A DNA stretch of 64,000 nucleotides from Convolutriloba macropyga (lineage: Eukaryota): assembly GCF_964194025.1 (NCBI RefSeq), contig NC_134468.1, positions 13,640,001-13,704,000 of the forward strand, given 5' to 3'. The position numbers were made by a program, and so were the translations under genes. Positions 12,033 to 39,403 of this stretch are shown piece by piece. The notes beneath the pieces are model-generated. The model saw only the letters and a program-made list of their open reading frames with translations. It made no database searches and had not been told where the DNA came from. The first letter of the stretch is position 1; every line of letters starts with the position of its first letter.

Positions 12033-14605
12033 CTTAAATCAAAACAAACAATCTCATACCACCGTCTTATTTGCCAAATCCACCTCATTGTCCACAGCAC
12101 ACGGCTTTTATACAAAAAGAAAGGCTTACAGTCATTATTGCTCTAATAAAAAGTTAACCAGTCAAAAAAGCGTATATGATGGTTTCATTGATAAGCTTGT
12201 CTTTATTCTTGGCAAGTGTGTGTTTCAAAATCCATTTTTCGCAAACTACAAAGCCATAGTTCACAACAGGTACTGTGGTACAGCTTGATAATCTTTGCAC
12301 AATCTGTTTCAAGTATCAAAAATGTGCCAGAATTAACCACTTACAAAGCAAAAATAGCATTTGTACGGAATGAATAATTGCGCTTCAAATAATCTTAATG
12401 TCACTTTTTGAATACTTCAGCTCCTTATTTCGTGACGATTTTTAGCTTCTACAACAGCCATACAAATTTGACTTTTGTAATATGTTGCGTTGACGATTCT
12501 AGAGCATTTAATTCAGGCGCGTGCAAATATGGGAACAGTAATCCAATAACAAAAACGCTAATAAATAAAGAGAAGCAAATCCATTGTCCGATGTCAACAC
12601 CACAACGGAAATTGAAAACCGAAAAACTTGACAAGATCACAAAAATTTCATATAATTTTTAAAAAAAATTAGTATCAATCTCCTTAAGCCACAAAATATA
12701 CAGCTGAAAAACAAATAAAGCTGTGCGAGTGAAAATTTCGTGAAACAAGGACAAAAAGATAGGAAACAGACACACACAAAAACCAGGAACTAATAGTGGA
12801 GCCGCGTAGAATTCATTATCCTCAATAGCTCAAATAACACATCATTATCAACTGAATCTCAAATAGAATAGATCGTTCGTATCATTTAGTAGCCAATGGA
12901 ACTAATTAAACTCATTTGCTTTGAAAGTAGAAGTTTATAATCAAAAACAATTATTCTACAAATTGGCATCCGAAGGGATTAGGAGATAACCTTTAAAATA
13001 ATTCTTTCGCACTCTCATAAATTCTATCATGAAAACTTTCATGAATTCTTTTTACTAGCATACAGTCGTAGTTTGACGCCATGAAAAATATCTCCGTAAC
13101 GTGCTCGTCAAATCAAAAACCGCCTGAGTTACCGTTTCTTTACAGACAAAGTAGAAACACGGTATCATTTGCATAGAAATGAGTTAGTTGACTTCCAGCC
13201 GTTCGAATATGAGATGAACTGTAATGGCAACAAATAGCAGTTTCAAAGCAACGGTAGTAACGCTGAACCTTGTGGTACCTCGGTTTTGATTTCCTGCTCC
13301 GAAGACAAATCTTTAAACAAGACTCTCTCAGATCTACCACAGACAGCTTTCTAAGAAGCAGACAACACAGCCATCGAATTTTTTGCTGACATCTAGAATC
13401 CATAGAAGTATATTTTGATTAAGTGCATGGAAGGCTGCTGATAGGTCAAGCCGAATGTAAAAATTGCCTTTTTGTCCTAAATAAAGTAACGTCATTGATA
13501 ACTTTTAGAAGGGCTGTTTCGGTTGAAAGACACTTTCTACACAAGAATTTATTGCCATCAAGGTGCTCAGTGAGCGGTAAAAAAGCTGCTCTTTCTATTT
13601 AATGTGATATAAATTGATATTCGATACTGGTCTATAGTTTTCAAAATCCTCACAAACAGATTCACCTTTTTAATACCATAAACCGACACACGTTTACAAT
13701 AATTACTTCAAACTCTATTCGAGCGCAATTAATGAAGTCCCAGAGGGAAAATTCCCTGATCTAAAGAAGATCATATCAGTAAGTAGCTTCATATGATGTC
13801 ACTAGAGCTCATTAAAGAGATCTACATGATTTGAATCTACAAAATCAAACCAATTTTGGCCATCTTGAGTTCAGATGTAAAATTGTGAATTAGAGCAATT
13901 TAGATCCCGCTCAATTCGGACAGACAATGACGTAAAAGTCTAATGGTCCGACGAAAAACCAATCGAGCAAAAAATTGCATTAAAAAGACCAAGCGGAGCC
14001 AAATAATGAAACATGACCGACTAACGTCGGGCGAATTGCTCTCAAACGACCGGCGAGCGGTTGGCTTGGTCAGTAGCTAGCCACGGGGGGGGGGGGGGTG
14101 CACCGGGCACCGGGGGCTGATGGGGGCAGTACTGGGTGGGGGAGGGCAAAAGCGCGGTGGGGGGGGGGTGGAGCCAATAGTGGGGGTGGGGGTCAACAAA
14201 GGGGGGGGGGGGGTGTCAACCTCTAAGAACCGCCCCTCACACCATAAGTATAAGTATAAGTCTCCAAGACAGTTTGAGCTGAAACAAACCTGAAAGGCTC
14301 TAAGAGCACATAATGCCCGCTGGGCGCTACCTGTTTATCCCGTTTTTGAGGACGAAAAGTCAAAAGCGTCAGACGAAAAATTGGTCAAGCGAAAAATCGC
14401 ATAAAAAGACCTACAGGACTAATATAATTGCTACAAACTTCGTTTGAGAGCAATTAAAAATGATCAAAATAATATTTTGCATACGAAAAGACAAACACCA
14501 ACTCAATAATCTTGAAACGTTGTTCGAGAGACATCGATAATCCTTCACTATACGCAGGCGTAAGTTTCTAGCGCTCCTATCGGTGTCTATGTAATATATA
14601 CTAAC

Positions 14606-17033: not shown

Positions 17034-20000
17034 CTACCAAAATCAAATTAAAAAAATTACATTACATCAGTTAAATTTCAATTTTGACGAGATCTGTATA
17101 CATTAGGTAATTCATAAAAAGGCAAATGCAAAAACTACAAAAATAATTCCTGTATTATACAATATCAAATTGACTGATGTCGAAGTGGACGGAGTACTTA
17201 GCGCCTAGTAGTTAGTGCTTTTCTAACACCCTCGAAGCTTTCTCGTACATAACTGCCAACAACCCCTCAATTACCTTTCGTTATTTACAAAGCAGATTTC
17301 CGATTGAAGTCTTGTTTCTACTTTACTTAAGTTTTTTTTATATATTATAGTTTTCGTTCACTTGCATTTTGCTGACACGAACACTGCCATTTTGCTGACT
17401 GAGCAGGCCAAAACTAAAGATTATAGAGGATCACGGACCTAAGACAACGTAACTGCGAGGAAGAGCAGTTTTCCCCAACCGAAAACATAGCCGGCAGATT
17501 GCCGGAAAATAGCCGCGATAGACGCTCGTGGCCTTCCATGGAATTCAAACAACTAAAGAAACAAGACAGACAGATTGACCACCAGTCCTTTAATAGACCA
17601 CCAGATTCTTTGGGTTAGATTCGGACTGTCATTTTTATGAGACAAATACCCTCTATAAGGAAAAAGCCCTAGAAGAGCTTTTCCAAAATCAAGTGAGGTA
17701 AGTCACGCAATTGACCTAAAAGCAGAATATATGACGTCACGCACACAAAATTCTAACTCCAAGGCAGTAGAAGTAACTGAAATTGAAAAAGTCAATGGTC
17801 GCAAGAATCATTGCTGGAAGTCCTGAAATACAATCCAAAAAATTGAATGAAAAACTTAGAAATACTGTACTTGACCAGAACATCAGTTGAACAACGCCAG
17901 CCAAAAAGAGAAACAATCTCAAAAGTTTGAACTAAAATCAAACAAACTGAACAAAAATATATTCATTGTAAAACTGATGAACTCTTGGACTCCTGAAGGA
18001 CAAATTTGATCCAATTAACCCTTAAACCATTAACCCGAACACAAACCTCGAAAGGCCAATAAAGACAGCAAAAAATTTAGAACGACCAAGACCTAATGAC
18101 CCGAAAAAAAGTTTCATTGGTCCGTAACGATTCATAAATGACTAAAAAAATAACAAAAAATTTCAAAACAATTGCAATTTGTAATGAAAAGCTGCAAAAA
18201 TTTTAGATATTAGTTTCTTCAGAACCATTTCAATCTATCAAGGCTATTCAGTAGCTCAATTTCTAGCTTTCAAAAGTTGCACTCATAAAGATCGATAATT
18301 TAGAAACATGACAAAAATTTTGAACTGTTCAAAATTTATAAAAGAGATGCAAAAACTTGTGTGTGATATTCAAAAGTTGAAAACAATTCCATTGCCCCTA
18401 GCAACTACTAAAACAAACGAGAAAACCGCAGATGAGGTTAGCTGACCTCTCAGACAAGAAAAAGTGAATAAACGATAAACATTTTCAAAAAATTGGAAAC
18501 AAAAATTACAAGTTATCACAAACTAATAAAATTGGTGAATTCAAAATGTTGAAAACGATTTTATTACAAATAAAAACTATGAAGACACTTATTATCATAC
18601 CTTATAGGAAGTTTTCTGCCACACTGAGGCTGGAAACACTCCAAAATGACAACAATTTTACTTGCAAGCTTTCTCAAAAGGTTGCAAAAATTCGGGACAT
18701 TAAAATGTTGAAAATCAAAAAATGGAATGTTAAAATCAATTGGAAAGCTCAAAAAATGACAAAAAAGTTCAGAAAACTTTGGTATACTTCAACTTGATAA
18801 AAATTGCAAAAATTATCATCATTTTTCGTGATTGTTTACATTACCAAAAACATATTTGAAGAAATTGCCATAAAAAGTAATTATATCTTTTAGAAGACAT
18901 TTATCAACTTTGACAAACGACAATTCAAGAATAATCAAACAAAAACCTCGAAAATTAACAAAAAAACCTGAAAAAAATAGCGCCATTTTGGTCTCGAAAA
19001 CTCATATATGACATTTTAAGCTTGAATTACGGCCTTCCCAGTAGCTTCAACACTCTAAGCACTTGATGGACTATTAAACGCGGCTGAAACCTAATGCGAC
19101 TGGGTCTTACCTGTTTATCCAATTTTGAAAGATCAAAGTCATGACAAATGTGTGAAAGTGTTTAAAACATCTTATGAAAAAAAGAGAGCACCAATACAAT
19201 CTAATTCTTGGATTGTAAACAATGACGATGTCCCCAATATTCGTCGCTATCGCTTCGCGGCTATTAAAAAAAGAGTGAGGGTAAAAACAAAATACACATA
19301 ATTCGATTGTTTCTATAACGCCGCATGATCTAGTGAAGATCCTAATGCTATTAATAGATTCAAAACATCCAATTTCGCAATTGTACCCCAATTGTAATCA
19401 CATCCAGTATATTGATTAGTACAAAAAAATTGTTAAACATTTGAACGCACTTTTGCCTCTATTAGGTCAAACAGTACTTCTATTCATTAATCTTCAGAAA
19501 AACGGTCGCTAATTATTTGGCTATGAAAGACGACCAGGGGGAGGCAACAGTGGGAGGGGGGTTTGGAAACGAATCTAGAGTGACTAATTCCTTTTCGGAG
19601 TAACTCCGTGTGGTATTTCAACGGCATCGCAAATTACTTGATCATTGTCCTCAACTTGATATCAAGAATTTGGAAACGACTCCAAATTTGTCAACAGTAC
19701 AGAAAACAGAACCTGGAGAATGGGATATATTCGTTTGGTAATAATTGGAATACTAAACAAACGCGTACACTTGAAAACCCTCAAATCACCAGTTCCATGT
19801 TTCCAAGAAGTACAGCCGTTCGTACATACTATAGCTGGCGACTAAATCAACACTAAATTACAAGTCTGCTTGGCTCCATAATGATTGTAGTGTCTTGTTT
19901 TCCAAAAAACACAAGAGCTGTCTTTGCTATTTGCTATCTGAAATCGGCCTTTGTTACCAGTCAATTCCCCAAAAAAATTTACTCCTAAATTTTAAAAATT

Positions 20001-23000
20001 GAAAACGCAACAACTTGTCTGCGTATCAAAAAGGAAATGAACTAGGTTTTGTAGAATCAGAAGCTCTTATTCCCCAATAAAAGCAGTTGACAATCAACGA
20101 TCTGCAAATTTTCACAAAATAGGGAATAGAATAGGAAATGTGAGCTTTTAATTAAAACTGCCAGCTGTTTCCCCCAATAGAATTTCCCAGCTGCTCTGAA
20201 TAGGAGTATGTAGACCATATGGAGACCATAGTTTTCTACGGTGTTATCACTTAATGTTATATCTCAGTTTAATTTGCTTTGCTCTACAGTTTTTTTCTAT
20301 GCTATTGACTCTATGTTCAAAAATTACAAAATCTAACGATCTTCAGCCTTCAACAAAACTTCTTTGTCAACTTCTTCGGAAAACGTGAACTTCTTTGGTG
20401 AGATTTTTACCTGTTTCTCTCAATTAAAAATGCGACTGCTCATCCACCAAAAGGTTGCAAAAATTCGGGACATTAAAATGTTGAAAATCATTCCATTGCC
20501 ATTAAAAAGTATAGAGAAAACTATTATCAAACCCTCCAAGACGTTTTATGGCCCTTGAGGCTGGAAAGCTCAAAAAATGACAAAAAAGTTCCGAAAACTT
20601 TGGTATACTTCAAAACTTGATAAAAATTGCAAAAATTATCATCATTTTCGTGATTGTTTACATTACAAAAAAAACAGATTTGATGAAATTGCCGTAATTA
20701 TATCTTTCAGAAGACATTTATCAACTTTTACAAACAACAATTCAAGAATAATCAAACAAAAACCTCGAAAATTGACAAAAAAACGTGAAAAATTGCGCTA
20801 TTTTGGTCTCGAAAACTCATGAATGACCTTTTAAGCTTGAATTACGGCCTTCTCAGTAGCTTCAACACTCTAAGCACTTGATGGACTATTAAACGCGGCT
20901 GAAACCTAATGCGACTGGGTCTTACCTGTTTATCCAATTTTAAAGATCAAAGTCATGACAAATGCATGAAAATTTTTAAAACATCTTATGAAAAAAAGAG
21001 AGCACCAAAACAATCCAATTCCTGGATTGTAAAAAATGAGGATGTCCCCAAAATTCGTCGCTATCGCTTCGCGGCTATTAACAAAAGAGTGAGGGTGAAA
21101 ACAAAATATACATATTTCGGTTGTTTCTATAACGCCGCATGATCTACTCAAGATCCTAATGCTCTTAATAATTTCAAAACATCCAATTTCGCAATTGTAC
21201 TCCAATTGTGATCGCATCCAGTATATTGATTCGTAAAAATAAGTAATTGTTAAACATTTGAACGCACTTTTGCCTCTATTAGGTCAAACAGTACTTCTAT
21301 TCATTAATCTTCAGAAAAACGGTCGCTAATTATTTGGCTATGAAAGACGACCAGGGGGAGGCAACAGTGGGAGGGGGGTTTGGAAACGAATCTAGAGTGA
21401 CTATTTCCTTTTCGGAGTAACTCCGTGTGGTATTTCAACGGCATCGCAAATTACTTGATCATTGTCCTCAACTTGATATCAAGAATTTGGAAACGACTCC
21501 AAATTTGTCAACAGTACAGAAAACAGAACCTGGAGAATGGGATATATTCGTTTGGTAATAATTGGAATACTAAACAAACGCGTACACTTGAAAACCCTCA
21601 AATCACCAGTTCCATGTTTCCAAGAAGTACAGCCGTTCGTACATACTATAGCTGGCGACTAAATCAACACTAAATTACAAGTCTGCTTGGCTCCATAATG
21701 ATTGTAGTGTCTTGTTTTCCAAAAAACACAAGAGCTGTCTTTGCTATTTGCTATCTGAAATCGGCCTTTGTTACCAGTCAATTCCCCAAAAAATTAACTC
21801 CTAATTTTTAAAAATTGAAAACGCAACAACTTGTCTGCGTATCAAAAAGGAAATGAACTAGGTTTTGTAGAATCAGAAGCTCTTATTCCCCAATGAAAGC
21901 AGTTGACAATCAACGATCTGTAAATTTTCACAAAATAGGGAATAGAATAGGAAATGTGAGCTTTTAATTAAAACTGCCAGCTGTTTCCCCCAATAGAATT
22001 TCCCAGCTGCTCTGAATAGGAGTATGTAGACCATATGGAGACCATAGTTTTCTACGGTGTTATCACTTAATGTTATATCTCAGTTTAATTTGCTTTGCTC
22101 TACAGTTTTTTTCTATGCTATTGACTCTATGTTCAAAAATTACAAAATCTACTGATCTTCAGCCTTCAACAAAACTTCTTTGTCAACTTCTTCGGAAAAC
22201 GTGAACTTCTTTGGTGAGATTTTTACCTGTTTCTCTCAATTAAAAATGCCACTGCTCATCCACCAAAAGGTTGCAAAAATTCGGGACATTAAAATGTTGA
22301 AAATCATTCCATTGCCATTAAAAAGTATAGAGAAAACTATTATCAAACCCTCCAAGACGTTTTATGGCCCTTGAGGCTGGAAAGCTCAAAAAATGACAAA
22401 AAAGTTCCGAAAACTTTGGTATACTTCAAAACTTGATAAAAATTGCAAAAATTATCATCATTTTCGTGATTGTTTACATTACAAAAAAACAGATTTGATG
22501 AAATTGCCGTAATTATATCTTTCAGAAGACATTTATCAACTTTTACAAACAACAATTCAAGAATAATCAAACAAAAACCTCGAAAATTGACAAAAAAACG
22601 TGAAAAAAATAGCGCCATTTTGGTCTCGAAAACTCATATATGACATTTTAAGCTTGAATTACGGCCTTCCCAGTAGCTTCAACACTCTAAGCACTTGATG
22701 GACTATTAAACGCGGCTGAAACCTAATGCGACTGGGTCTAACCTGTTTATCCAATTTTAAAGATCAAAGTCATGACAAATGCATGAAAATTTTTAAAACA
22801 TCTTATGAAAAAAAGAGAGCACCAAAACAATCCAATTCCTGGATTGTAAAAAATGACGATGTCCCCATAATTCGTCGCTATCGCTTCGCGGCTATTAACA
22901 AAAGAGTGAGGGTGAAAACAAAATATACATATTTCGGTTGTTTCTATAACGCCGCATGATCTACTCAAGATCCTAATGCTCTTAATAATTTCAAAACATC

Positions 23001-23380
23001 CAATTTCGCAATTGTACTCCAATTGTGATCGCATCCAGTATTATTGATTCGTAAAAATAAGTAATTGTTAAACATTTGAACGCACTTTTGCCTCTATTAG
23101 GTCAAACAGTACTTCTATTCATTAATCTTCAGAAAAACGGTCGCTAATTATTTGGCTATGAAAGACGACCAGGGGGAGGCAACAGTGGGAGGGGGGTTTG
23201 GAAACGAATCTAGAGTGACTATTTCCTTTTCGGAGTAACTCCGTGTGGTATTTCAACGGCATCGCAAATTACTTGATCATTGTCCTCAACTTGATATCAA
23301 GAATTTGGAAACGACTCCAAATTTGTCAACAGAACAGAAAACAGAACCTGGAGAATGGGATATATTCGTTTGGTAATAAT

Positions 23381-23826
23381 TGTCAGCGGAGGCCTACCTA
23401 TACCCATGTGACGTTCACCTTTATGCCAGCTATCTATTAGAGCAATTTTGGGGGCGCTAACTATTTTGGTTTTCTCAGGCTTTTGTTTTAAAGATTTTAA
23501 GTCAGCATGCTCGAAAGAGTTCTTTTGGCAATTTTGAGTCTATCTCCAGAAATAAAAGTTTTGTGCAGCAAAAGTTTTATTCACAAGTCAACTGAGCTGT
23601 AGCTATCGTTCTCTCTGTTCTGAGAGTGGCAATTAGATTAGAGCATAACATTTGATGTTAAATATTTGCACGAGATAAAGTAAGAGCATTGTACAATTTA
23701 ATCTTTATAATCCCGGATGCTTATGCGCGTGTGAATGAGTTAAATTTACTAACAATGGGGTAAATGCACGCGCATGGATTGTACAAATATGTTTAAGCAT
23801 GGCACGAATGTATGAGGGGCATGACA
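23381..23826 (-). repeat. 3' LTR (446 bp)
   Basis: Matches 35902-36339 and lies next to the PPT. Confidence 0.95.
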
Positions 23827-23839
23827 CTCCCACTTCTTC
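23827..23839 (-). promoter_or_regulatory. Polypurine tract
   Basis: - strand GAAGAAGTGGGAG immediately before the 3' LTR TGTCA. Confidence 0.85.
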
Positions 23840-23882
23840 AGAAAAAAAAAATTAATGTCAAGTTTTCAATTTTCAGTTTTCA

Positions 23883-24975
23883 ATGTCTTCTGATCTTAAT
23901 TTATTCGCAATGAACTGTGATTCTGACGAGGCGCAGGCTGTCAGTTCTGTGTGCGAATCAGCATCCAGCGAGAAACACCAGAGAAATGTTGTCTGGGCGA
24001 GAGAGCTATGGAATTTTGTGTCAGCTGGAAGTGTGTCGTCTGTTCCAGAGGTGACCCGTGAGGAAATTGAGGGTCAGAGTATGAGTGTTGGCATTCTTCG
24101 CGGGGAGCCTCTGATGGAGTTCAGCAGCCCCGAGATGCAAGTAAGAATCTTGAAGTATGTGTAGAGGTAGTAATCGTGTCTTAGTTGTTGTTCACTGCAT
24201 GAATTGTGAATGCATGTTGTGCTGTTTGGTTTTTACAGCAGTTGGCAACGGGATTGAGGACGCCATTGGATTTCGAAGGACACTTCGCCAGCAACGAGAA
24301 GATCAGGCCAGATTGGGCTTTTCAGTCATGGGTGTGCGAGGGTGTGTATCCTCGTGACATCCTAAGTTACCACCCGAGGCCACATCGCACTGAAAACTTG
24401 TCCGGCTTCTTCAACTTCCGTGTGTTTGGGGGCGAACGTCTGTATGATCCTAGCCTGCTCATTGCAAACTCGTTCACGTACACAGGCCCTCATGTAGATT
24501 CTAAGCCCACGCTGACCACACTTGCTGTTCTCCTCTTTGGCGTGAAGCTCTGGATTATATGTCCAGACATCAAGACAGACACGGCAGCGTTCATTAGAGG
24601 GCTGGATTTGAAAGAAATGTGCAGCTTCCTCAAAGTAATTGCGCAATTAGTTCGGTTTTGACTGTTTTTTGTTCCTCTGCTGACACTATGGGAGCATAAT
24701 GCGGTTGATGTTCTTGATTGTCAAATGTCATGCTTGTTCAGGGGCCAGCAGGGAAAGGATTCAGATTCGTGATTCAACGGCCTGGTGACACGCTGTATCT
24801 GCAAGAGATGGTTGGGCACGCTGTCTTCACTGTCAATGGTCTCCCTGGCATCGACTGTGGGATCATTGAAGAGGGCTCGTGTCTGCTATCGTCACCAGTG
24901 GTCACGGATTTGTCTCCAGAGAGGTTGCACGGGTTAAGTTGGATCGTTGAACAACCCGGCACCCGCTGCTCGTAA
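23883..24975 (+). CDS. JmjC-domain 2OG/Fe(II) oxygenase, 3 exons (23883-24140, 24239-24634, 24742-24975), ~295 aa, antisense within the retroelement
   Basis: Phase-0 introns GTAAGA..TTTTACAG (98 nt) and GTAATT..GTTCAG (107 nt) join three ORFs in frame. Motifs TGPHVD, LLFGVKLWIICP and QRPGDTLYLQEMVGHAVFT. AATAAA at 25084. Confidence 0.85.
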
Positions 24976-25132
24976 GAGGAAGCAGAAGAAGAAGGCCCGG
25001 TTTGGAAGAAATCAGCGCCCAAAGAGTTAGCTCAATGACAAGTGGTATCAAATTTTACTGCACTTTTTTCCCAAATAGTAATGAATAAATAGCGAAAAAT
25101 TGAAAACTGAATAATACGAGAAATGCGGTAAT

Positions 25133-25925
25133 ACCCATATAGCAAAAAGCACAATGTTTACGGTTTGTATATTAAATTTGAGTTGCGTAGCTCAAATAAC
25201 AAGATGAGGCTTTTGTTTTTCGTATTTTAAGAAATTTTATAAATAGCACACAGTTCAGATAAAAGGTGAAATTAAACATAATATAGTGCACAGAAGCACG
25301 CGAAAGAGGGTATAAAGCACGAAGGTTGTTATGATCAATAACTGTGTTAAAAATTACAGCGCTGACTTTTATAGTTAAGCCAGGCTTTTGTTTTAAAATA
25401 CACTGTTTTTTTTTTGAATTAAGTTAAAAAAAAATAACACGAAATTAAACTTTTTGGTTCCTTCATGAAGTCCAATCAGCGCACAAAATTACGCATTTAA
25501 CACAAAGCAATAGCTGAGGAGTGTGTATAGAGAAAACGAGAGCTTTTGAACAAACGGCACTACCAGGCTTTTGTTTTAACTGCAGCAAACTTTATATAAA
25601 TATCACATTCAGAGGGTAATTGTATTCGATTAGAACATAAGTACTAAGCTTAGCCACTCATATGACGTGAGAAGGCACATGTAGGAGCTATGCTGAGATT
25701 TATAGAGAGATTGAGCCAATAGAGTTGTCAGGCTTTTGTATTAAAGAAGCATTAAAAATAAAGCAATGAATAAAACTTGTTCGTCAAATAAAACATAAAT
25801 TAATTAAAAAGTATTTGCGTTTAAGATTTTGTTTTACCCATGTGACATTAAGCACATAAACTCGGAGCTCCTGACAAAGAACGGTGGTTTTCTGTTGAGT
25901 AGTTTGGTCAGGCTTTGTTTTTTAA
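25133..25925 (+). repeat. Degenerate array, 5 units with ~175-bp period, two-part motif
   Basis: AGGCTTTTGTTTT-like box at 25207, 25382, 25565, 25730, 25910; ACNCATNTRAC-like box exactly 74 bp upstream at 25133, 25491, 25656, 25836. Confidence 0.7.
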
Positions 25926-26488
25926 CAATAACAAAATAGTGAAATTAAAAGCAAATCTTTTTTCAAATCATTGAAATATTTTTTATTTTAGAGCCAACAA
26001 CAAGCAGCACACAGCTTCTAGACGAGGGAAGCCGCAGCGAATAGCTGCAAGCAGAAGGGTGGGGAGAGGAGGGGGACAGGGGGGAGAAACGAAGCATCGT
26101 CATTAAGTTTTAGTAGGTATATCCACTTTATTTATACTTGAAAAATTTTCTGGTTATTAAATTGAGAAGTAGCACACATATTGAATCCGCGATAATCTAA
26201 CATATTTGTAGCAATTATTCGTGTCGGTAGTTTTGGTGGACGAATTGTAAAATAATTTTCATACAGCTCCAGAAATAAATGTATTTTTTTCCTGTTTTTT
26301 TTTTCAATTTATATGAGTATTTTTTTTTTCCTTTTCACAATTATATAATTAAATCTTTCAAGCCAAAATCTTTTATAATTGAGTATAGGACTGAGAGTAG
26401 CACAGGTATAATAAATTGTTTGTGAGTGAAAAACACCCAGAATCAAATCAGTAACTAATGGTTTATGAAGATTTTCAGATCTATAAAA

Positions 26489-26761
26489 ATGATGTCAAAG
26501 ATATTGTTTGTTGCATTATTTGCTATGATTGTTACGAGTGTTGATATTAACAAGTGCATTTTATTGAGCGAAGAGAACAATTTTGGGACAAATTTGAAGT
26601 GGTTGTGTTGTGATGGAGTACAATTTTTGAGCGAGGCTGGAAAAATTACAGCAAAAGCAGGGGCATGCGAAAATTCCCAAAATAAAGTGAAGCCTTCAGC
26701 TGGCAGCATGTTAATGATAGCCAGTTTTGCAATTGTGCTACAATTACAGTTGAGTCATTAA
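26489..26761 (+). CDS. Small predicted secreted, GPI-anchored protein (90 aa; ORF open from 26465)
   Basis: N-terminal hydrophobic signal MMSKILFVALFAMIVTS, 4 Cys, candidate omega site in CENS, polar spacer, hydrophobic C-terminus MLMIASFAIVLQLQL. Confidence 0.6.
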   Translation: MMSKILFVALFAMIVTSVDINKCILLSEENNFGTNLKWLCCDGVQFLSEAGKITAKAGACENSQNKVKPSAGSMLMIASFAIVLQLQLSH

Positions 26762-26940
26762 TATGAGAGTAGTAGGAAAGTGGTGAAGGAAAACAGTTTA
26801 ATGAGAGCAAGTAGATGGAGTTGAGTAAAGTGAACAAAACTAGAAAATTTCAAAAACAAAGAAACTTTTAGTTTTATTTACCATACGTTGAATCTGTAAA
26901 TGAATTAAAGTTAGGAGAAGATTGATCTATATATTTTTCA

Positions 26941-29242
26941 TTAAGCACGCGACTCATAAATCACTTGAGGATAAATGGGGGGCGGAACAATCGATTGCTC
27001 TGACTCTGGACAAGATGCAGATTGAGAATCCGCTGTATCAACAGTAGTTGTTGAAGGGCTAAAAAATGGATTTGGTAAATTTAAATCACGTCGTCGGAAA
27101 ATTAATCCCTTTTCGCGAACACGATGATTAGGGTGTTGTCGCAAGTAGTCATAATCTTCATCAGAAACTACCAAAATGGGCTGTGATTTAATAGTGTGGG
27201 CAGAAATAGTTAGGCGAAATGGGAAACGTCTATGAACTTGAATGTACCGGTGAAAAAGATAACTCATCAAAAAGTGTAGACCGAAAGACAAAATAAATGT
27301 AGTGATCGCAAACACTATATAAGGTGTCCAGTGCACCGTCTCATCGAATTTTGCTGTTATCTGAGGATGAAATTGTTTCATGCGATTAACAATAGGTTCA
27401 GTAACTTTTTCGAGTTCTTTATAATTACGTCTCTTATGCTCAGGAATGTGAATTAGTTGGAGATGAACCTCCTCTACTAATTGTACTCGAGCAATGTCAA
27501 CATCAGACATTTGTGGCATAGAATCAAGAGATGGAAGTTGATTGAATAAAAAGCTAAGCGGCGTTGGTAAATTAATGTCGAGTCTTAACTGGTGTTGTAT
27601 ACTGACAGGTAGACCAATCTGATCTTAAATGTATATTAGGTCCTTCTAATTCCTGTCCACACGCTAAAATAATAATGCAAACTTGGCACCCTTGTCTATG
27701 TTCTTTACTTAGGGGATGACTAGAATTCGGAGATCTAGACGAGAGCAGAAAGTTTGGCGTTGCACTAGTAATCAGCCATCTACCATGGCCTAACGATTGA
27801 GCCTTTTCTTTGATAGGTAATTGAATTGATCTGATGCTACAAACTTCGAGTGCGGATAGAGTGTCTTTAAAAAGCAAAGTAGCCAGACATGAGTCCTTCG
27901 ATTTTTCCATCGCAAAAGAAGAGAAACAAATTGAGTAAAGCTTAGAGCCTATACATTCTTGTAAGTCAAATTCAGTCAAAAGTGCAGCTTCACTTTGCGT
28001 GTCTGTTACTGCAATGTAAGGCGTTTCTAAAACCCAAATGGTTGCTCTTGTTGACTCTTTAGTTGGCATTGGAACTGGAAGAGCGTGAATTACATCTAAA
28101 GCTGTAGAACCTGATGAAAAAGGTATAGATAATGTTAACATAAGACCAAAGTCGACACTAACAACACTTGTAACAAGTCGTGTCTCATAGTAAGACATCA
28201 CATGTTCTATTGGAATGGAAAGTGTTAGTCGATCTCTGTTGTATTGAGTTTCTAGCAAAACTTGTTGTAAAATTCGAATAAAAATTTTGCGAGGTATAAG
28301 AGAAAGTGGCAGCATACCATCTGCAATGGCAGTAGTCGAGCTCAAAATATTCATTCTAAAAGCAAAAAGAGCAGATCTATATGTGCGCAGATTGGTGTAT
28401 ACAGACGTTAAAATAGAGTTCAACAGGCCAATGTGGTGATTGAATTCTTCACGGATATAAAGAAATTGGTCACAATTTCGCATGTAGTTAATGCTGCTAG
28501 CCAATGTGTCAAACTGTGTCTGTAAAATTTTAACATTAGATCTCTGGATTTCAGCTAGATGTTCTGTGGCTTTACGCAGGTCTCGGAGTTCCTTTCCTAC
28601 TATAAAAAATTTCTCGTTCGTGGCGTTTTGGACACTAGACCATTCTTGCTGTAATTGGTTCATGTGGTTGATTGAGTCTACAATAGCTTTTCTATTCTGC
28701 TTACCAATCTGATTGCATCCGCCAAACATTCGTCCTAATGTACAGGATAGTTTGTCTTTGAATCCCATGCCCAGACCAAAGATTCCAGCTGCAGCGCCTG
28801 CTAACAGGGCAACGGGAATGCCTCTTCGTTCTCGATATTGATGCTCTGTAACTTTTGAGGGGAACAGCTCTGTGAGTTCTTGCTGAAGTTTCACCAAGTC
28901 GTTTTCGGCTCTTTCTTTCTCTGCAATGACTTCGGTAAGAACCCATTGTGAATTGAAGTTGGTGGCAGTGATGTTACTGTAGTCAAGTTGGCATCCCTTG
29001 TTGGGGTGATTCCAGATTGTGTCCATTCTTTGTGCGATTTCAGAGATAAATTTATCAATTGTTAGGTCAAAATTTGGAAAAGGCAAAACAAATTGAATCT
29101 GTTCAAATTTTTCAGCCAATAGTATTTTTCGATGGTAATTAAAAACAATGCCATTATGTTCTGAGTTTCCTGCTATCAGAAAAGGAAAGATTATTAATTG
29201 AACAAGCGAAATTGAATACAAGTTGTAACCAAAGTTGGCCAT
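26941..29242 (-). pseudogene. env: env, class I fusion glycoprotein (baculovirus-F/errantivirus-like), one frameshift near 27584
   Basis: Signal peptide, furin site RERR|GIPVALLAGAAAGIFGLG fusion peptide, heptad region, Cys-rich region, TM WTPYIVFAITTFILSFGLHFLMSYLF. The shifted frame LDINLPTPL.. aligns with the second env. Confidence 0.9.
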
Positions 29243-29509: not shown

Positions 29510-32500
29510 TTAGTTTGCGAATCGGTCAGAGTTCGATGAGCTGGCTTGATAGCGTTTTGGTACGTTCACCTCTCGGCGAAGTTCATATGCCCTGTTAGTT
29601 CCAACGCGTGGATCTTGATCTGGTGGAACTAATGAGCGGCGCCTTCTTTTTGATTTATTTGGCGGATCCAAAGGAACCGCTTGTGAAAACACGCTGGTCG
29701 GTTGAGTAGTGGCCCGTGTAACGTAATTTGGATAGTGTCGGGTATCAATGAATTCGGCACTCTGAGTAGTTGGTTGGAAGTGTTGGTTTCCTTCTACCAC
29801 AAATTGCTCCGCAGTATTTTTATACTCTTCGTGACAAAAACCTGGCCTGTTTTCCTGGTTTTGGGTCTGTAGGGGTCGCAAAATGGGCTGCTCATCATCT
29901 GATTGTTGTAATATGGGGTCTGAATTTCGTCCATCAGCAACTAAATTTGTGTTATTATCATTTTCACGTCGGTTTATATTTAATTGCAGTTCCGGATTAT
30001 TTGCAAAGTGTGTTGGAGCATTAAAACGTGATCTCACACCAAATTGCATAATTGAGGAACCATTAGATGGTCCCACTATGATTGGCGAGTGGTGGGAGGC
30101 TAGATCTTTTAGGGTTTGGTCAAAAATTTGAGGTTCAGAGATTATTTTTGTGATTGGGTCGGCTTTAAAAATTTTGGAGTCAATCTCTTTCAAATCTTCA
30201 AACTCGTATTTTGGTTGAATTGGACGCAAACCAATACGATGTACGAGTTGTGTATCGTTGGTATTAACTTTGCGAACTATATAATTTGAATTTGTTAAAA
30301 CTTGCTCAACGCGATAGAGCGGTAACCATTTGGTTACTGATTTAGCAGCAAAGTCTTTTGTACTACTTATTTTTGGGTTCATTAATAGGCAGTACGAATA
30401 CAATGCTAGAGGTTTTGAAAGAGCTTTTTTGTCATAGAAACGACGATATTTGTTGTATGCAACTATGGAATTATCCCTAGCACCAGCAAAGAGCGTGTTC
30501 ATACGGTCTTGACTTTGTTGTAAAAAGTCTTGAGTTGGTTGCGCTTTTTTGACAGTTAAATTATTGAATCGCAAGTCAAGGGGCTTTGTCGGCTGACGGC
30601 CATGAAAGAGCAGGGTCGGGGGGCATCCTATTGAAGAATTATAAGTGGTGTTATAGACAGAAGCTGCGATATCAACATAATGGTGCCAGTCTTTTACAAT
30701 TATATCTTCGTAAATATGCAAAAATCGTTTTACTATAGCATGGCTACGTTCAACTGCACCAATTGTTTGAGGATGTTTTACAGATGCCAATTTTAGTTCA
30801 ACTTCTAGCAATTCACATAAAGTTTTCATCATCTTTGACGTGAAAACTGAGCCCAAATCACAAAATGGTTGATGGAAGGTATGCGTGCTGCATAAAAATT
30901 TGAAGCAAAAATCTGGCAACGTTTTCCGCCGAGGCATTTTTCATTGGGATTAGAAAAAGATAACGGCTGAAGATATCCATCGCAGAGAGTATGTGTATAA
31001 CCTCCGGAGGGATTAAGTTTGCCTACAATATCTACTTCCATCAAATCTCCCGGAAAACATTGTTCTGATGCAATTGGTAAAAGAGGTGTTTTTAGGCTGT
31101 TTTGCTGAACTGATTTGATTTGCAAACAAGATGAACAATTGGACACATACTCTAAAAGAGTTTCTGTAAATTCAAGAAAGTAAAACCTCTGGCGAAACTG
31201 GTTTGCAGTTTCGGCTGTTCCAATGTGTCCCATAAATTTGCTATTGTGAATTCTAAACAGAATCTCATGACGAAGGTGCTTAGGAAGAACCAACTGACGT
31301 ATAAAATTCTGTCCGGTGTTATCGAAAAATTTGCGATATAACACATTATCATACAATTCCAATCGGTTCAATTGTTTATTATATTTTTGCAATTCGGTAT
31401 TAGAGTAAGTTGTAACTGGTTTCACTTTTCTCTTGATCCAATTGATCACAGTTCTAATATTGCCATCTTTTTGTTGCTCCTCAAAAAGATTCAGGGACTG
31501 GTTGTTATTGCTGAGATCAAACTCATCTAAGGGGTTAGCTTCTGCGAGTGAATTTAAGGGGAAGTCAAAAGAAGGCTCAAACACTTCAATCATATCAGAA
31601 TCTGGTTCCTCTAAATAGCACTGTAAAGCTGTAAGACTATTGTCTGGAATTTTTGGTCGGAATTCGACAGCAACGTCTATAAGTTGAATTCTGGTTTCCA
31701 ATTTTAGTTGGAGCTTTGTAGCAGGATTAATATAGATCCTAGACAAATAATCTGCGGCTACGTTAGCTTTACCTGGGACATGCCCCAAAACAAAATTGAA
31801 ATTAAGGACATGATCAACTGCATTCCATAAGGCAGTTGGAATTGTCTTTGCCTGGAAAAAACTAGTCAAACTTTTGTTGTCAGTCAACACTAAGATAGGT
31901 TTTTTAGTCCCCCATAAGATGTGCGCAAAATTATCAAAAGCAAAAGGAACTCCCAGAAACTCTTTTGCATAAACTGATAATTTAAGTTGCGTTGTATTAA
32001 AGATTTTAGAACCAAAAGCCACGGGAGCGTATTGCTTCTGTTCTAGTCCTTCCTGGTTCAGTACATAGTCCTCTACCATAAGGACGTATCCTGCGGAATA
32101 ATAGCTTGCGTCGGACAAAATTACATATTGTAGATCTGTTTTTGGTTGGCGAAGGGTTATTTTACAAGCATTGTTTAGCATTTCTATTAGTTCACTCATC
32201 GATTTTCGGTGCTCATCCGTAATTTCAAAATTGTTGTTACATTTTAGTAGTTTGTAAAATGGGAGCAGTCTCTCACTGAGGTTCGGTAAATAGGTCCTAA
32301 AGTATTGAAATAAACCAACAAGTCTTTTGACTTGCTTGAAGTTTTTTGGCATTTTGAGATTTGATAAAAATTTATCTATTTTGGCCTTTATGGGAGATGT
32401 CCCTTCCGATGAAATTGTTCTACCTAAAAGTGTGATCTCGGGGACACCAATTTCACATTTTCCCATTGATAACTTAAGTCCTGAATTTCTAATACACGTA

Positions 32501-33890
32501 AAGATAGCTTTCAAATTTCCGTAAAGACACTGAAAATCAATTGCGCCTGTTCCCAAATCATCCACGTACTGGAAACATTGGTCATTAGCTATACATGAAT
32601 CAAGGTACTTTCTCATGAAAGAGCTGAAGGCACTGACTGATCTACTTAGTCCCTGTGCTAACCTAGTGTACGCAAAGGTTCGGGAGGCAAAATTGAAGGC
32701 TAATAACTGGACAGATAATGGGTCAGACATCTTAACCGCATAATACGCCGGACTACAATCTAGTTTTGCGAAAATTCGTTTGCCCGCTAAATGTGCTCCG
32801 ACATCTTCTATAGTTGAAATCGGGAAATTGTTAGAGTTGTAGTCATGGCGTATTAAGTGATTAATACGCCTAAGGTCAACTAATAGTCGGAGTTTTCCGG
32901 ACGGTTTGCGTTGCGCAAAAAGAGGGCTCGAGTATTTGGAATAGGGCAGTGTAGTGATGATTCCAAAATACTGCATTATAGCTAAATCAATTAGGATTTC
33001 CTCGCGCAAGTGAATTGCAGTGGGTGGGCTCTGAGTATACACTGGTCGCTGTGTTTCAGGTGTGAGCTTAATCTTAAACTGGTCATTTCCACCGACATCA
33101 TAATTGTGCCGCGCAAAGACATCATGAAAAGAAACTAAAAGTTCTTCAAAGTAGGCGTTAAAATTGTAAGTCGAGCAACTACTGCTCCCTTTGGTACTGA
33201 AACTACATTTGGGGTTACATTTAAGAAAGCTATTGGCGTTTTTGAAGATTGGATTTTTGAAAAGGAGCTGGTTAAACAAAGACCTGTTGATCTTTCAAAA
33301 CGTGGGTTAGGATCTACAATTCCAATTGTGTTGTCGGCTAAAATATTGTCGAGAAAACAATCTATTGTTTCCTGACTATTGGGGAAAATGTTCAATTTTT
33401 TGATTGTTTTGAGAACGTATTTATGTTTTTTTAAATTTCTTTTTCGTTTTGCCATTACGCATTGTCATTTCTGAAATTTGCAGCGATATTTCAGGCAGGT
33501 GTAGTTTTTGATGCTACGTCAATTAGAATTCTATTGTTTTTATAGAATGGAAGACCTAAAATTGGGTTATTCATTTTCGGCAACAACAAAAACTTTTCTG
33601 TGAATACTTGATTAGCGAGAGTGAAGGTGATTTCAACTTGACCTAGGGTTTTTGCATGGGTTGCGTTTGCCACTTTTACAACGGGAAAGGGGTTTGTATC
33701 AAGATATTTAATACTCTGCGGTGCAGAAGATTTAATTTTCAAGCATGGACGGTGTAAGAGCACTAGAGAAAGCACCAGAGTCCACTAAAAACTTTAAGGA
33801 AAGTGATTTAAACGTTAGGGGAACAAAAAACAGATTTGAGGAAAAAGGAGGCATAACAGCAGTTAGAAAAGGGGGTTGCAAATGTGGCTG
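29510..33890 (-). pseudogene. pol: pol (protease, RT, RNase H, integrase) with frameshifts and an internal deletion
   Basis: FLVDSGA protease motif (~33785); RT LRLLVDLRRINH, AQGL, YVDD; RH SDAS..ELL-like..TDNKSL; IN HHCC (H..H..CSSC), DIVG, DLGSVFTS, ERSH. Confidence 0.95.
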
Positions 33891-33892
33891 AC

Positions 33893-35781
33893 CTAGTTTT
33901 TTTGCTGATCAAATGGCAGTTGCTGATTTCTTTCAGGTTGAGGTTTGGACCAGCAGTACTGCACTGTGTGTCCATACTTTCCACAATTGCGGCAGTATCT
34001 CTGGTTTCTGGTGGGCATTGTATTTGACCAGTGTCCTGCGTATGCTGTTGGATAGCCTGATGCTGGGTAACCTTGTGCTTGCACACCCGCTTCATCAGTT
34101 GTCGCTGACTGTTGGCCGTGGGACTGATAGCCATAAGCCTGGTAGACTGGCTGCTGTTGTCCTGTTGTTATATAGCCCATTTCCACCGACATCATAATTG
34201 TGCCGCGCAAAGACATCATGAAAAGAAACTAAAAGTTCTTCAATTTGTTCCTTTTCTTGTTCAGTTAAAATTGAATTGTCCCACCGAAATTTTGAAAGAA
34301 ATTTTTTCCTAGACTCAGAATCTTTTGTTGGATCAAGCTTTTCTTGTTCTTTCAAAAATTTGAGTGTCTCAAATATTCTTTTGTGAATACCGGTTAATGC
34401 ATCTGGGTCCTCACAATTTTCAGGTGTAGGAAACCAAAAGCAGTCTGTTGGAAATGGTAAACTTTGCTGGGAATTGTCAACAAGCTCGTTTATGTCGCTG
34501 CCATCTATATTTAAGAGCGCTGGGTCAATTGGTTGTAAATACTTTGCTTGCTTAGGCGTTAAAATTGTAAGTCGAGCAACTGGACGGTGTAAGAGCACTA
34601 GAGAAAGCACCAGAGTCCACTAAAAACTTTAAGGAAAGTGATTTAAACGTTAGGGGAACAAAAAACAGATTTGAGGAAAAAGGAGGCATAACAGCAGTTA
34701 GAAAAGGGGGTTGCAAATGTGGCTGACCTAGTTTTTTTGCTGATCAAATGGCAGTTGCTGATTTCTTTCAGGTTGAGGTTTGGACCAGCAGTACTGCACT
34801 GTGTGTCCATACTTTCCACATTTGCGGCAGTATCTCTTTCAAATTTTGACTTTTATATAGCCCGGTCTTTGAGAGCTGATTGCATTGTGACTCTGATTAT
34901 TTTGACGCCAGTCTCTTTGTTGGAAAGGTTGTTGCATCTGCCAGTTTTTGTTAAACTGGTAGGGCGGATTAAACCGCTGTCTTGGGTAAAACCCACCTCT
35001 GCCTCGATAGAAATGGTGCGGCTGTCTAAAATTACTATAAGGAGCATTAGAGTTTGCATTTTGACTTTTATGCTCTTCCAGTGACTTCGCTAATTTGTTT
35101 GTTGTTTCTTTCAGCTCTGTTTGATTTTTATTTAAGGCACTCATACTCTGAATAAGTGAGGTCATTTGTGAGGCTGAGATTTCGCTAAATGCTGTTCCGA
35201 CATCATCTTCAGGGTATTGCTCTTCAAGCATCGCCCTTCTAGAAGCCCGTTCACAAGTCTTCTACAGTGGTGTGGTCAGGAAGAGTTAGTAGGTACTTTT
35301 TAAGCTTATTTGGCAAACCATTAATAAAGTTCTCCTTAACTCTTCTGACTCGCTCATTAGAACGATCTTCAGCAGCAACTGCTGGCACGCCAGCAGCGGC
35401 AGCTCGCGCAGCAATATTTGGAAAAGCAAGACTAGCTAAGCGTTGCAACTCTGTCAAAAAATCATGAATGCTTTCCTCTGATTGCTTCAGTTTTCTATTT
35501 TGGAATTGGAGTTTATAAAGTTCAATTCTATCAGGGTTTACATACCGGTTTCTCAATGCGTCTAGTGCTTGATCCAAGTCTTCACGTATGGCTTCTGTAA
35601 GCTGGTCATAAAAAACTAAGGCATTACCTTTAAGATGAAGATGCAAGTAGCGATGTTGTTGATCCTCGTCGATTGCTGCCAATCCAATGCAACTTCGAAG
35701 TTGTCGTTCAAATTGAGTAAAATTATCTTTCTCTGATCCCGAAAAGGGCGTCAAATTGAGAAAAGGTTGCAACTGAGCCAT
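33893..35781 (-). pseudogene. gag: gag (Ty3-type capsid + CCHC knuckle), frameshifted and internally rearranged
   Basis: LTPFSGSEKDNFTQFERQL..LKGNALVFYDQL capsid; knuckle CR[K/N]CGKYGHTVQYC present twice (~34790-34832 and ~33955-33997), each followed by an AAAAAAC slippery heptamer and TAG. Confidence 0.9.
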
Positions 35782-35887: not shown

Positions 35888-35901
35888 CACTCCTGTCACC
35901 A
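35888..35901 (-). promoter_or_regulatory. Primer-binding site, tRNA-Leu-like
   Basis: TGGTGACAGGAGTG directly after the 5' LTR; one mismatch to the complement of the recalled tRNA-Leu(CAG) 3' end (TGGTGTCAGGAGTG). Confidence 0.85.
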
Positions 35902-36339
35902 TGTCAGCGGAGGTGACAGCGGAGGTTCTCCTTTATGCCAGCTATCTATTAGAGCAATTTTGGGGGCGCTAACTATTTTGGTTTTCTCAGGCTTTTGTTT
36001 TAAAGATTTTAAGTCAGGATGCTCGAAAGAGTTCTTTTGGCAATTTTGAGTCTATCTCCAGAAATAAAAGTTTTGTGCAGCAAATGTTTTATTCACAAGT
36101 CAACTGAGCTGTAGCTATCGTTCTCTCTGTTCTGAGAGTGGCAATTAGATTAGAGAACAACATTTGATGTTAAATATTTGCACGAGATAAAGTCAGAGCA
36201 TTGTACAATTTAATCTTTATAATCCCGGATGTTTATGGGCGTGTGAATGAGTTACACTTTACTAACAATGGGGTAAATGCACGCGCATGGATTGTACAAA
36301 TATGTTTAAGCATGGCACGAATGTATGAGGGGCATGACA
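35902..36339 (-). repeat. 5' LTR (438 bp)
   Basis: Matches 23381-23826 and is followed on the - strand by the PBS. Confidence 0.95.
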
Positions 36340-38251
36340 ATAATTGGAATACTAAACAAACGTGTACACTTGAAAACCCTCAAATCACCAGTTCCATGTT
36401 TCCAAGAAGTACAGCCGCTCGTACATACTATAGCTGGCGACTAAATCAACACTAAATTAAAAGTCTGCATGGCTCCATAACGATTGTAGTGTCTTGTTTT
36501 CCAAGAAACACAAGAGCTGTCTTTGCTATTTGCTATCTCAAATCGGCCTTTGTTACCAGTCAATTCCCCAAAAAATTAACTCCTAATTTTTAAAAATTGA
36601 AAACGCAATAACTTGTCTGCGAATCAAAAAGGAAATGAACTTGGTTTTGTAGAATCAGAAGCTCTTATTCCCAATAAAAGCAGTTGACAATCAACGATCT
36701 GTAAATTTTCACAAAATAGGGAATAGAATAGGAAAGGTGAGCTTTTAATTAAAACTGCCAGCTGTTTCCCCCAATAGAATTTCCCAGCTGCTCTGAATAG
36801 GAGTATGTAGACCATATGGAGAGCATAGTTTTCTACGGTGTTATCACTTAATGTTACATCTCAGTTTAGTTTGCTTTGCTCTACAGTTTTTTTCTATGCT
36901 ATTGACTCTATGTTCAAAAATTACAAAATCTAATGATCTTCAACCTTCAACAAAACTTCTTTGTCAACTTCCTTGGAAAATGTTAACTTCTTTGGTGAGA
37001 TTTTTACCTGTTTCTCTCAATTAAATATGCAACTGCTCATCCATCATCTGTTCTGTTAGAGAATGCACCAATCCCTTACCTTTTTAGAAACAAATTTTAC
37101 CAAGTTCTATTTTAAATTATAAATTGTTGAAAAACACTCCAAAAATTCTCTCTGGAATTGAGATTGTCTTGGTGTCATGGAAACCAGAATCAAATGCGTG
37201 TTCATTGGAAAAAAACAATTACAGAAACAGACAACACAATCGTACACAATAACATATATTTCGCACTCCTACGCAGCGCAATTATCGGTCTCAGAGGCTG
37301 CCGTGTTACTAAACGTGTAGCTGAGGTTTATATTACATAGTTTTGTTGTGTGGGAGGGGAGGCTAGACAGCTAATTAGTAAAGTAACATTTCAACCTTTT
37401 GATGCGGCTCCTGTAGTCAATCACACTAACATTTCGCTTAAGTTTAAAATACAATGTGCTTTTGCGGTAAATTCAAATACGCCGCTGTGATGTTTCTTAT
37501 TGGTGGCTAACTCTTTTGTCTATTGTAGTGGATCTGACACTTTTGCAGTAACCTCTTGTCAGTAGACCGATGGAAATTTGCAATCATCTTCATGATATCA
37601 CTTACATAACATAAAATCTATAGGATAAGGTTGGAACTGTATAAATCAGTTTACATTTTCAGCAAGAACTGAAAAAACTTTTCAACAATTGATTCAGTTT
37701 ATATAGTTTTTCATAAAATCCATATATATAAAATTTTGTATATATAATTTTAAACTTGTAATATTTAACCCCTGGGTTATATTTTCAATTTACTTGTTTA
37801 AACAAAAAAATAATAACCACTTTTGTATCTCGCTGCAAAAAACATCGGACAAACATTTAGGAAGGGTTGGAAGAAGCTACACATGCTGGTCTAGGATTAT
37901 TACCATCCGCGGGTCTCTAGAACCCTAAAACTCCATGAATTGCCTTTCACACCGCGAACGTAGATCTCCGCAGCAGTTTTAGTGAATCGCATACTTATAT
38001 TAGTAAGGCTCTAGAGAACTGCCCGGCGACCTAATGCCCTCGGGTGTTATCAGTTTATCCTGTCTCTCAAGTTCTGTTCAGTTGAAGGTTTCTGATCTTT
38101 AGGCATCCGCCTCTGTCGATCAGCTCTTTCGTCGGAGGGTCATTTCCCTGTCAAATTGACGTTTTAAACTTAATACAACTTTGCTTCAGAGCACAACAAG
38201 AACCGAGGAAGGCAAAAGCTACATTCTTAAGTACATTTTATATAGAATTAC

Positions 38252-38359: not shown

Positions 38360-38893
38360 CTGAAAAACATAGATCACATACAAAAACATACATAACTTGA
38401 ACACAAAAATTCTTTTCTTTAACTTTATTATAGTATCTCCTTCCCCCGCTGGTCACGCAGATAAACTTTCTCTTCGTTGTCGTAACTATAAGAAATTGGG
38501 TAGATACCCGAGTTACCAATTTTTTCCCACGTCACCAATGAAATTCAAACCAAAAATGAATGCGACGCCCGCACAGTCAACAAGACTGATAGTGTAGACG
38601 CCGTGTATGTCATATACAAATTCCTAATCCAGATTTGATATGAATTACACTTTTGTATTGGTTGAAATTCTGATATGGTAAAATGAATTTGTAGCTATTT
38701 AGAAATGGATTGTGATTGGTTTATTAGATTAACTTACAAAAACAATTGAAGAAGTTGCATGAAGGAGTTGGAAGAGATAGAGTGTTAGAATAAAGTTGCA
38801 AAAAGATGTTTTGAAATTGAGAGAATTAGAGGGAATCTGCTCAGAACCTGCATCTGAAAAATTATAAACCATAGAATTAATAGTGATAGAAGA

Positions 38894-38913
38894 TGGTGAC
38901 AGGAGTGGGATTC
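38894..38913 (+). promoter_or_regulatory. Primer-binding site, tRNA-Leu-like
   Basis: TGGTGACAGGAGTGGGATTC, extending into the complement of the tRNA T-arm. Confidence 0.9.
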
Positions 38914-39403
38914 TTGAGATCTTGTGAGTGGGACTCACAAGATCTCAAGCCACCCTGTTTTAGCTTGAGGATCTGTATACAAGTTCAAGAGACCAAATAT
39001 ACAGATCTTCAAGCTAAAACAGGGTGGCTTGAGATCTTGTGAGTTCTACATGTAGAGATGTCTCAGCCTAAGTTTGTTGATCATGCAGTCGATTAAATAC
39101 CGACAAAAACATTCCTTAGGAAAATACACTTGGCTTGATAATACGGACTGCCAGAAAAACATCGTCTGAGTTTTTGTCTTTCAAAAACGCCTCTTTTGCT
39201 TCGGGAGTATTATTGCACCCAGCAGCAGTCATAAAAAGTTTCCTAACACTGCCTCAAAATGTTCACAAGCCATGAAAAACAAAAAAATAACGCCTACTTA
39301 TAATTTAATGTCTATTTCTACAGGCATAAAATATTTTTAGATTGGCCACGTGAAATTAATTGTAAGCCCTGTAGCATTCAATCTTTCGAGAAAACCCTCC
39401 AAA

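Follow-up and report, generated by a model that had tools for sequence, protein, structure and literature searches.

A 13-kb Ty3/Gypsy element on the minus strand contains, between its env and its 3' LTR, a small antisense ORF that is likely to be a real gene (probability about 0.75). Its predicted product carries secretory and probable GPI-type signals. The host element itself is probably of the errantivirus type, with the small ORF as its genuine accessory gene. Env-carrying Ty3/Gypsy elements are widespread in animals, and their route to target cells is unknown outside Drosophila (PMC13524379).

General Features of the Small ORF and the Host Element

The ORF occupies positions 26465..26761 of the plus strand of the window (the whole 64-kb stretch of DNA analysed) and comprises 98 aa counted from the first ATG. 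The env stop codon (26941-26943, minus strand) faces the stop codon of the small ORF across a gap of 179 nt; the two ORFs are convergent, as the preliminary description had stated. The features are listed in Table 1.

Table 1. Features of the antisense genes and of the host element in the window.
Feature	Position	Strand	Remarks
3' LTR	23381..23826	-	TSD ATAAT 23376-23380; polypurine tract just inside, ~23827-23841
Gene 1, probably spliced, probably three exons	23883..24975	+	JmjC/cupin-like motifs by eye
Five copies of LTR-shared motif CAGGCTTT(T)GT	25206..25920	+	165-183-nt spacing, upstream of the small ORF
Candidate donors for the 26478 acceptor	~26406, ~26117, LTR GTAAG 23680	+	splicing inferred
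TTTTCAG, candidate splice acceptor	26472..26478	+	10 nt before Met9; splicing inferred
Likely coding sequence of the small antisense gene	26489..26761	+	90 aa from Met9; ORF opens at 26465
Predicted signal peptide, residues 9-25, predicted cleavage after Ser25	26489..26539	+	heuristic; hydrophobic core kept in diverged P0018
Predicted ectodomain, residues 26-78; Cys31, 48, 49, 68	26540..26698	+	low-confidence model, four beta strands
Putative GPI signal: omega candidate Ser78 (S-A-G), then uncharged hydrophobic tail	26696..26758	+	without cytoplasmic part
Candidate poly(A) signal ATTAAA for the antisense transcript	26904..26909	+	inferred
F-type env (signal peptide, RxRR site, fusion peptide, TM)	26941..29242	-	frameshift near 27570-27620 splits the window copy
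pol (RT, RNase H, integrase)	29510..33294	-	more than one piece in the window copy
gag region	33893..35781	-	several pieces in the window copy
5' LTR	35902..36339	-	PBS ~35888-35901; TSD 36340-36344

The element features paired TG..CA LTRs, 97.4% identical across 418 nt, with a 5-nt TSD, a PBS and a PPT. The Pfam domains follow the order RVT_1, RT_RNaseH and Integrase_H2C2, and Retrotrans_gag was found with an E-value of 1e-4, just below the cutoff. The env alignment contains a signal peptide, an RxxR site, a fusion peptide, conserved Cys residues and a TM segment. Baculo_F was matched by one of the ten aligned env relatives (E 5.8e-8), the window's own env piece giving no match; this match, taken together with the env features, points to an env of the F type. 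The gag-pol junction (33084-34837) contains near-identical internal duplications (33746-34002 = 34581-34837; 33084-33149 = 34178-34243), which may represent either a rearranged copy or an assembly artefact.

Most of the window consists of large tandem repeats (18741-23382 and 36339-37046; 2780-4047; 9255-13745; 44149-50809; 51943-55449) with units of about 1817, 421, 2450, 3330 and 1370 nt, and the insertion site of the 13-kb element is one 1817-nt unit of the repeat at 18741-23382 and 36339-37046. A 3.5-kb element at 38608-42144 has 286-nt LTRs that are 98% identical and harbors only an F-type env on the plus strand (39404-41650), interrupted by a single in-frame stop; the interval between its LTRs lacks any long gag or pol ORF. 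Behind its left LTR, 14 nt match the PBS of the 13-kb element. Judged by its sequence, it is an env-only non-autonomous element.

Predicted Protein

The signal peptide and the GPI end were called with simple hand-written rules, drawn up after the small ORF was seen. The signal peptide proposed earlier passes the rule from Met9 and Met10 and fails it from Met1, the first Met of the ORF. The Met9 codon (26489) has the context AAAAATG, the start was called at Met9 in five of the seven cluster members, and the short relatives P0018 and P0019 were called from Met9/10. Met9 is thus the likely start of the protein. Another frame, rich in Cys and 28 codons long, starts at an out-of-frame ATG and overlaps the signal-peptide codons (26458-26544, plus strand); this frame would be spliced away if the 26478 acceptor is used.

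The predicted ectodomain is 45-53 aa long. The protein contains four Cys residues with the spacing C-x16-CC-x18-C, which, judged by strand order only, could give two disulfides in the modelled ectodomain, and no N-glycosylation sequon was found in a sequence scan. The preliminary description had read C, CC and C followed by CENS; the four Cys residues are present, but the last of them is the C of 'CENS' itself. Nor do the 'CENS' residues form the best omega site. The best small-residue triplet is S78-A79-G80, 20 residues before the C-terminus and with a short spacer to the tail; the alternative N70/S71 has a good spacer but a poor omega+2 residue. Residues 82-96 form an uncharged hydrophobic stretch.

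A GPI anchor is the rather likely state of the mature protein. It is quite improbable that the gene is real and instead yields a secreted protein, or one fixed in the membrane by a short C-terminal segment. The hydrophobicity of the tail is only moderate (2.7 as the best mean over 11 residues, versus 3.3 in the signal peptide), the spacer is short and two copies stop four residues earlier, all of which would suit such a product; however, the protein has no charged stop-transfer residues and no cytoplasmic tail, the S-A-G triplet lies 20 residues before the C-terminus, and the tail DNA is conserved.

Homolog and Fold Searches

A word search among 5.8 billion clusters found no relatives of the small protein outside the family. 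Among 1.84 billion representatives there were four matches, three of them family pieces and the fourth P0020 (E 7e-4), a Thr/Gly-rich bacterial-type repeat protein that was rejected as a homolog, which leaves no true match outside the family. The Pfam match to Neurokinin_B (E 0.3-0.6) was rejected as far below the cutoff. The ESM recognition value was 2240, most known families reaching 2300, and the ESM Atlas leads (unnamed clusters, best 0.88; EB-module clusters, 0.77-0.79) were rejected as well. Neither the small protein (P0001) nor the env alignment had a locus in viral contigs or JGI metagenomes.

The full-length model is all helix (pLDDT 58), whereas the model of the ectodomain, built from an alignment of four sequences, is a four-stranded sheet (pLDDT 68); the two disagree. 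In the fold search of the ectodomain, the best Z was 3.6 among 48,161 chains and no Foldseek match reached E <= 0.001. Neither BFVD nor the PDB gave a significant fold match.

Small GPI-linked Cys-rich proteins are represented by Ly6/CD59, the GPI form of the avian retroviral receptor Tva and Bouncer. The small protein shares with them a signal peptide, a small disulfide-bonded domain and a GPI tail, all predicted here, but differs in its Cys spacing and has no Pfam, PDB or fold match. Members of the Ly6/uPAR family possess 8-10 Cys residues and end in CC-x4-5-CN; with four Cys residues and 18 residues separating CC from the last C, membership in this three-finger family was rejected.

Copies within the Main Family

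The small protein is represented by a 90% cluster of seven members and three single fragments. Eleven contigs carry pieces of the main family, tied by equal size across clusters (15 members listed out of 17 for env, 10/10 for gag and 8/8 for gene 1). The small ORF is full length on four of these contigs, four residues shorter with a hydrophobic end on two, broken on three and not found on two. Both signals are kept on six of the nine contigs with a call, or on six of 11 when the contigs without a call are counted. The ORF is not disrupted or absent in most copies, the outcome that the preliminary description had named as speaking against it, and the notion of an element-borne antisense gene is supported: it recurs in many copies and encodes secretory and probable GPI signals.

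The copies of the small ORF differ in 0-4 of about 90 amino acids, and the env pieces in about 2-8%; env is in pieces on all nine contigs listed. Per length, the small ORF in the main family is preserved no better than gag or env. This comparison fits neutral decay after a recent burst and argues neither for nor against selection. The small ORF might also be a chance or decayed frame, carried along unselected in a recently amplified element, which we consider unlikely. The LTRs differ by only 2.6%, so the intactness common to the copies may just reflect youth.

The short-read survey covered four DNA runs from two samples of one study. The deepest contigs of all four runs span the small ORF, and none of the listed gaps is inside it. 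In runs X2 and X4 the deepest contigs carry six other letters each, and the six listed differences lie outside the small ORF by an inferred pairing of letters and records. Hence, the dominant variant appears to encode an intact protein.

Diverged Subfamily and Signs of Selection

A diverged contig, recovered in 4/4 runs, aligns across 25926-26584 with 80 other letters and 20 gaps (through codon 40). Codons 41-83 are left unaligned; the match resumes at 26714-26749, in codons 84-95 of the hydrophobic tail, and is lost once more through the 3' UTR, up to env. A 36-nt island with at least 29 matches was obtained in 0/300 shuffles. The tail island gives the strongest indication that the C-terminal signal is under selection. 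The same contig also matches about 540 nt of non-coding DNA upstream of the small ORF, and its match in the 5' part of the ORF is therefore not coding-specific.

The diverged protein fragment P0018 is 64% identical to the small protein and ends after 45 aa. Its signal peptide shows four differences, none of them charged, and retains the hydrophobic core; the ectodomain shows 12 differences in 29 residues, with all three Cys residues of the span kept. In neutral simulations to the divergence of P0018, Met, the hydrophobic core and the Cys residues were jointly kept in 5.4% of 40,000 stop-free runs, a stop codon having been hit in 62% of all runs. The overall BLOSUM sum of P0018 was equalled in 42% of neutral runs, i.e., it was no better than neutral. 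The key features are thus weakly favoured, and the rest of the fragment is neutral-like or diversifying.

Expression Signals and the Upstream Region

TTTTCAG occurs three times on the plus strand of 23381-27100: before the gene-1 ATG (23883), within gene 1 and before Met9. In the window, 11 of 2008 ATGs are preceded by this motif within 12 nt, two of them being the starts of both antisense genes. In gene 1, a GTAAG donor is found at 24141, followed near 24240 by an acceptor that keeps the reading frame. The simplest reading of these motifs would be a spliced antisense programme serving two genes, which may form a cassette. An AATAAA at 26681, inside the small ORF, counts against the gene. The small protein would probably be translated from an antisense, probably spliced transcript, with the 3' LTR or the upstream array of LTR-like motifs as the promoter; antisense transcription would, with similar likelihood, uncouple its expression from gag-pol-env.

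The motif CAGGCTTT(T)GT..TT is found in the LTRs at 23476 and 35988 and, between the antisense genes, at 25206, 25381, 25564, 25729 and ~25908 (plus strand). The spacing of the CAGGCTTT array is near-nucleosomal, and its copies are candidate sites for an element-encoded or host factor. The idea that the units are structured RNAs was rejected (z from -0.8 to 1.2 in six of six folds), and none of the LTR-like motif units had an Rfam match above the gathering score. A second LTR motif, CTCCAGAAATAAA, is located in the LTRs at 23544 and 36056 and recurs at 26267 (plus strand), about 220 nt upstream of Met9. Four G-runs fitting the G-quadruplex pattern lie at 26056-26090 (plus strand), about 400 nt upstream of the small ORF, and are flanked by a candidate acceptor (~25991) and donor (~26117).

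Exon 1 of gene 1 was called on eight contigs. We take the motifs H-x-D ... K-x-W in exon 2 and Q-x-P-G-D ... H in exon 3 to resemble a JmjC/cupin 2-oxoglutarate oxygenase. Searches with single exons gave no Pfam or PDB match. If the resemblance is true, the retrotransposon would carry in gene 1 an anti-silencing gene related in kind to histone demethylases, which might be more surprising than the small protein.

Assessment of Chance Occurrence

The preliminary description held that two correctly placed targeting signals are unlikely in a chance ORF. Among the 86 window ORFs of 60-200 aa, five satisfy the signal rule, four the tail rule and one, the small ORF alone, both. An ORF with both signals arose in 1/2000 Markov shuffles of the interval from gene 1 to env (24980-26940) and in 0/5000 shuffles of the local 540 nt (26400-26940). 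These results favour the claim. It is weakened by the post hoc rules and by the chance expectation of about 0.06-0.14 two-signal ORFs per 64-kb window, as calculated from the ORF and shuffle rates. In a large scan the two signals alone are therefore no proof, and independent evidence is needed.

Besides this expectation, the similarity of P0018, neutral-like overall, the lack of homologs outside the family and an ESM recognition value below that of most known families would agree with a chance ORF. Against a chance ORF stand the island found in the tail of the diverged subfamily, the splice-acceptor and start context common to gene 1 and the small gene, the rarity of such ORFs in the shuffles of the interval, the even number of Cys residues and the retention of the three that can be tested. 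On balance, a real gene is the preferred reading.

Comparison with Known Systems

F-type env genes have been described for errantiviruses across metazoans (PMC13524379). The metazoan errantiviruses (PMC13524379) and the Tor elements of Oikopleura (PMC4402516) resemble the present element in the gag-pol-env order, the F-type env, the furin site and the fusion peptide, but the present element differs from both in a 3-kb antisense two-gene cassette after env. The terms 'antisense', 'accessory', 'GPI' and 'JmjC' have no occurrences in the main text of PMC13524379, supplements aside. Tor elements express env from an internal sense promoter (PMC4402516).

Antisense ORFs between pol and the 3' LTR (aORF-3R) are known in maize Grande (gene23), RIRE2, Retand and Botrytis Boty (PMC7264820). 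Like the small gene, they are antisense, lie in the 3' internal region, are found in most copies, have no database homolog and probably use their own promoter (PMC7264820). They belong, however, to plant and fungal elements, and their products are nuclear where located, or unlocated (PMC7264820); the small gene carries secretory and GPI-type signals and stands behind an F-type env in what is probably an animal element, presumably of an invertebrate. The aORF-3R class is further marked by antisense transcription and by conservation on a par with gag/pol (purifying selection); in the small gene the tail island and the key residues are kept, and overall change is neutral-like.

Antisense proteins of retroviruses are either HBZ-like or ASP (PMC10186651). 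HIV-1 ASP and HTLV-1 HBZ are antisense as the small gene is, and are driven by the 3' LTR, HBZ being spliced (PMC12568219, PMC10186651). ASP is found on cell and virion surfaces and enhances entry (PMC12568219). Unlike the small gene, ASP overlaps env and HBZ is nuclear (PMC12568219, PMC10186651). Sequence similarity was neither found nor expected.

Insect sORF2/FAST-like proteins (63-107 aa) are membrane-associated accessory proteins, as the small protein may be, and sORF2 serves cell-to-cell spread (PMC11952523). sORF2 is encoded in sense, is myristoylated, has a single TM segment and a polybasic endodomain and typically occurs in env-less elements (PMC11952523); in contrast, the small gene is antisense, has a predicted cleavable signal and no endodomain, and co-occurs with env. 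With no MGxxxS/T motif, no TM segment with polybasic endodomain and no sense orientation, membership in sORF2/FAST, as these features are given in PMC11952523, was rejected. Rotifer elements carry captured ORF3s, some of them with TM segments and Cys residues (PMC5408684).

The term 'GPI' is absent from the main texts of PMC13524379, PMC11952523, PMC5408684 and PMC10186651. No GPI-type accessory gene of an LTR retrotransposon was found in full-text searches of main articles, few of them from subscription journals. Antisense accessory ORFs are already known, and a secretory one of the GPI type behind env is probably new.

Proposed Role of the Small Protein

The superinfection-exclusion, fusion-cofactor and immune-modulating roles put forward in the preliminary description all stand as hypotheses. 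The product would probably enter the ER, lose both ends and be displayed on the outer leaflet, its mature form being a domain of about 50 aa that has two disulfides and a GPI anchor. Tentatively, and as a guess, it may help Env-mediated cell-to-cell spread as a docking or attachment partner, acting from the membrane of either the producer or the particle, or from the target cell. Fixed ends combined with a fast-changing ectodomain would fit a docking partner for Env. GPI proteins are known to enter budding retroviral membranes. This fact, the pattern of fixed ends and a variable ectodomain and the precedent of HIV-1 ASP (PMC12568219) form the basis of the guess that the small protein assists the F-type Env as a cofactor of docking or entry, a role we regard as possible.

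It is rather improbable that the small gene encodes a real GPI surface protein that blocks entry, be it by excluding superinfection or by masking a receptor, in cells with a silent sense strand. Known retroviral interference is usually exerted by Env-derived proteins, and the small protein is not Env-like. Moreover, the element is present in every host cell, and blanket exclusion would presumably block its own spread. The antisense orientation, for its part, would be in keeping with expression in latent cells, of which HTLV-1 HBZ is an example (PMC10186651), and the subfamily-specific ectodomain suits a specificity determinant.

Equally improbable is a captured host gene for a small GPI protein, acting in immune or cell-contact modulation unrelated to Env. 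The cluster and representative searches gave no cellular homolog, and four Cys residues alone do not make a Ly6/CD59-like protein. In its favour, a herpesvirus does carry a GPI-linked CD59 homolog, and antisense placement is established to keep introns through retrotransposition, gene 1 looking intron-containing. Captured extra ORFs are also present in rotifer LTR elements (PMC5408684).

A broader version of the docking role, highly improbable as yet, is that the element encodes both key and lock. Since the provirus is in every host cell, donor cells could make Env from the sense strand while target (germline) cells display the antisense GPI protein as a self-encoded receptor; gene 1, JmjC-like by eye, would counter chromatin silencing. 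If this were true, an invertebrate errantivirus would possess an accessory cassette like that of complex retroviruses, including a self-encoded receptor.

If it is real, the small surface protein beside env is a concrete candidate for the target-cell step of element spread, and env-carrying Ty3/Gypsy elements would run an antisense accessory programme, as complex retroviruses do.
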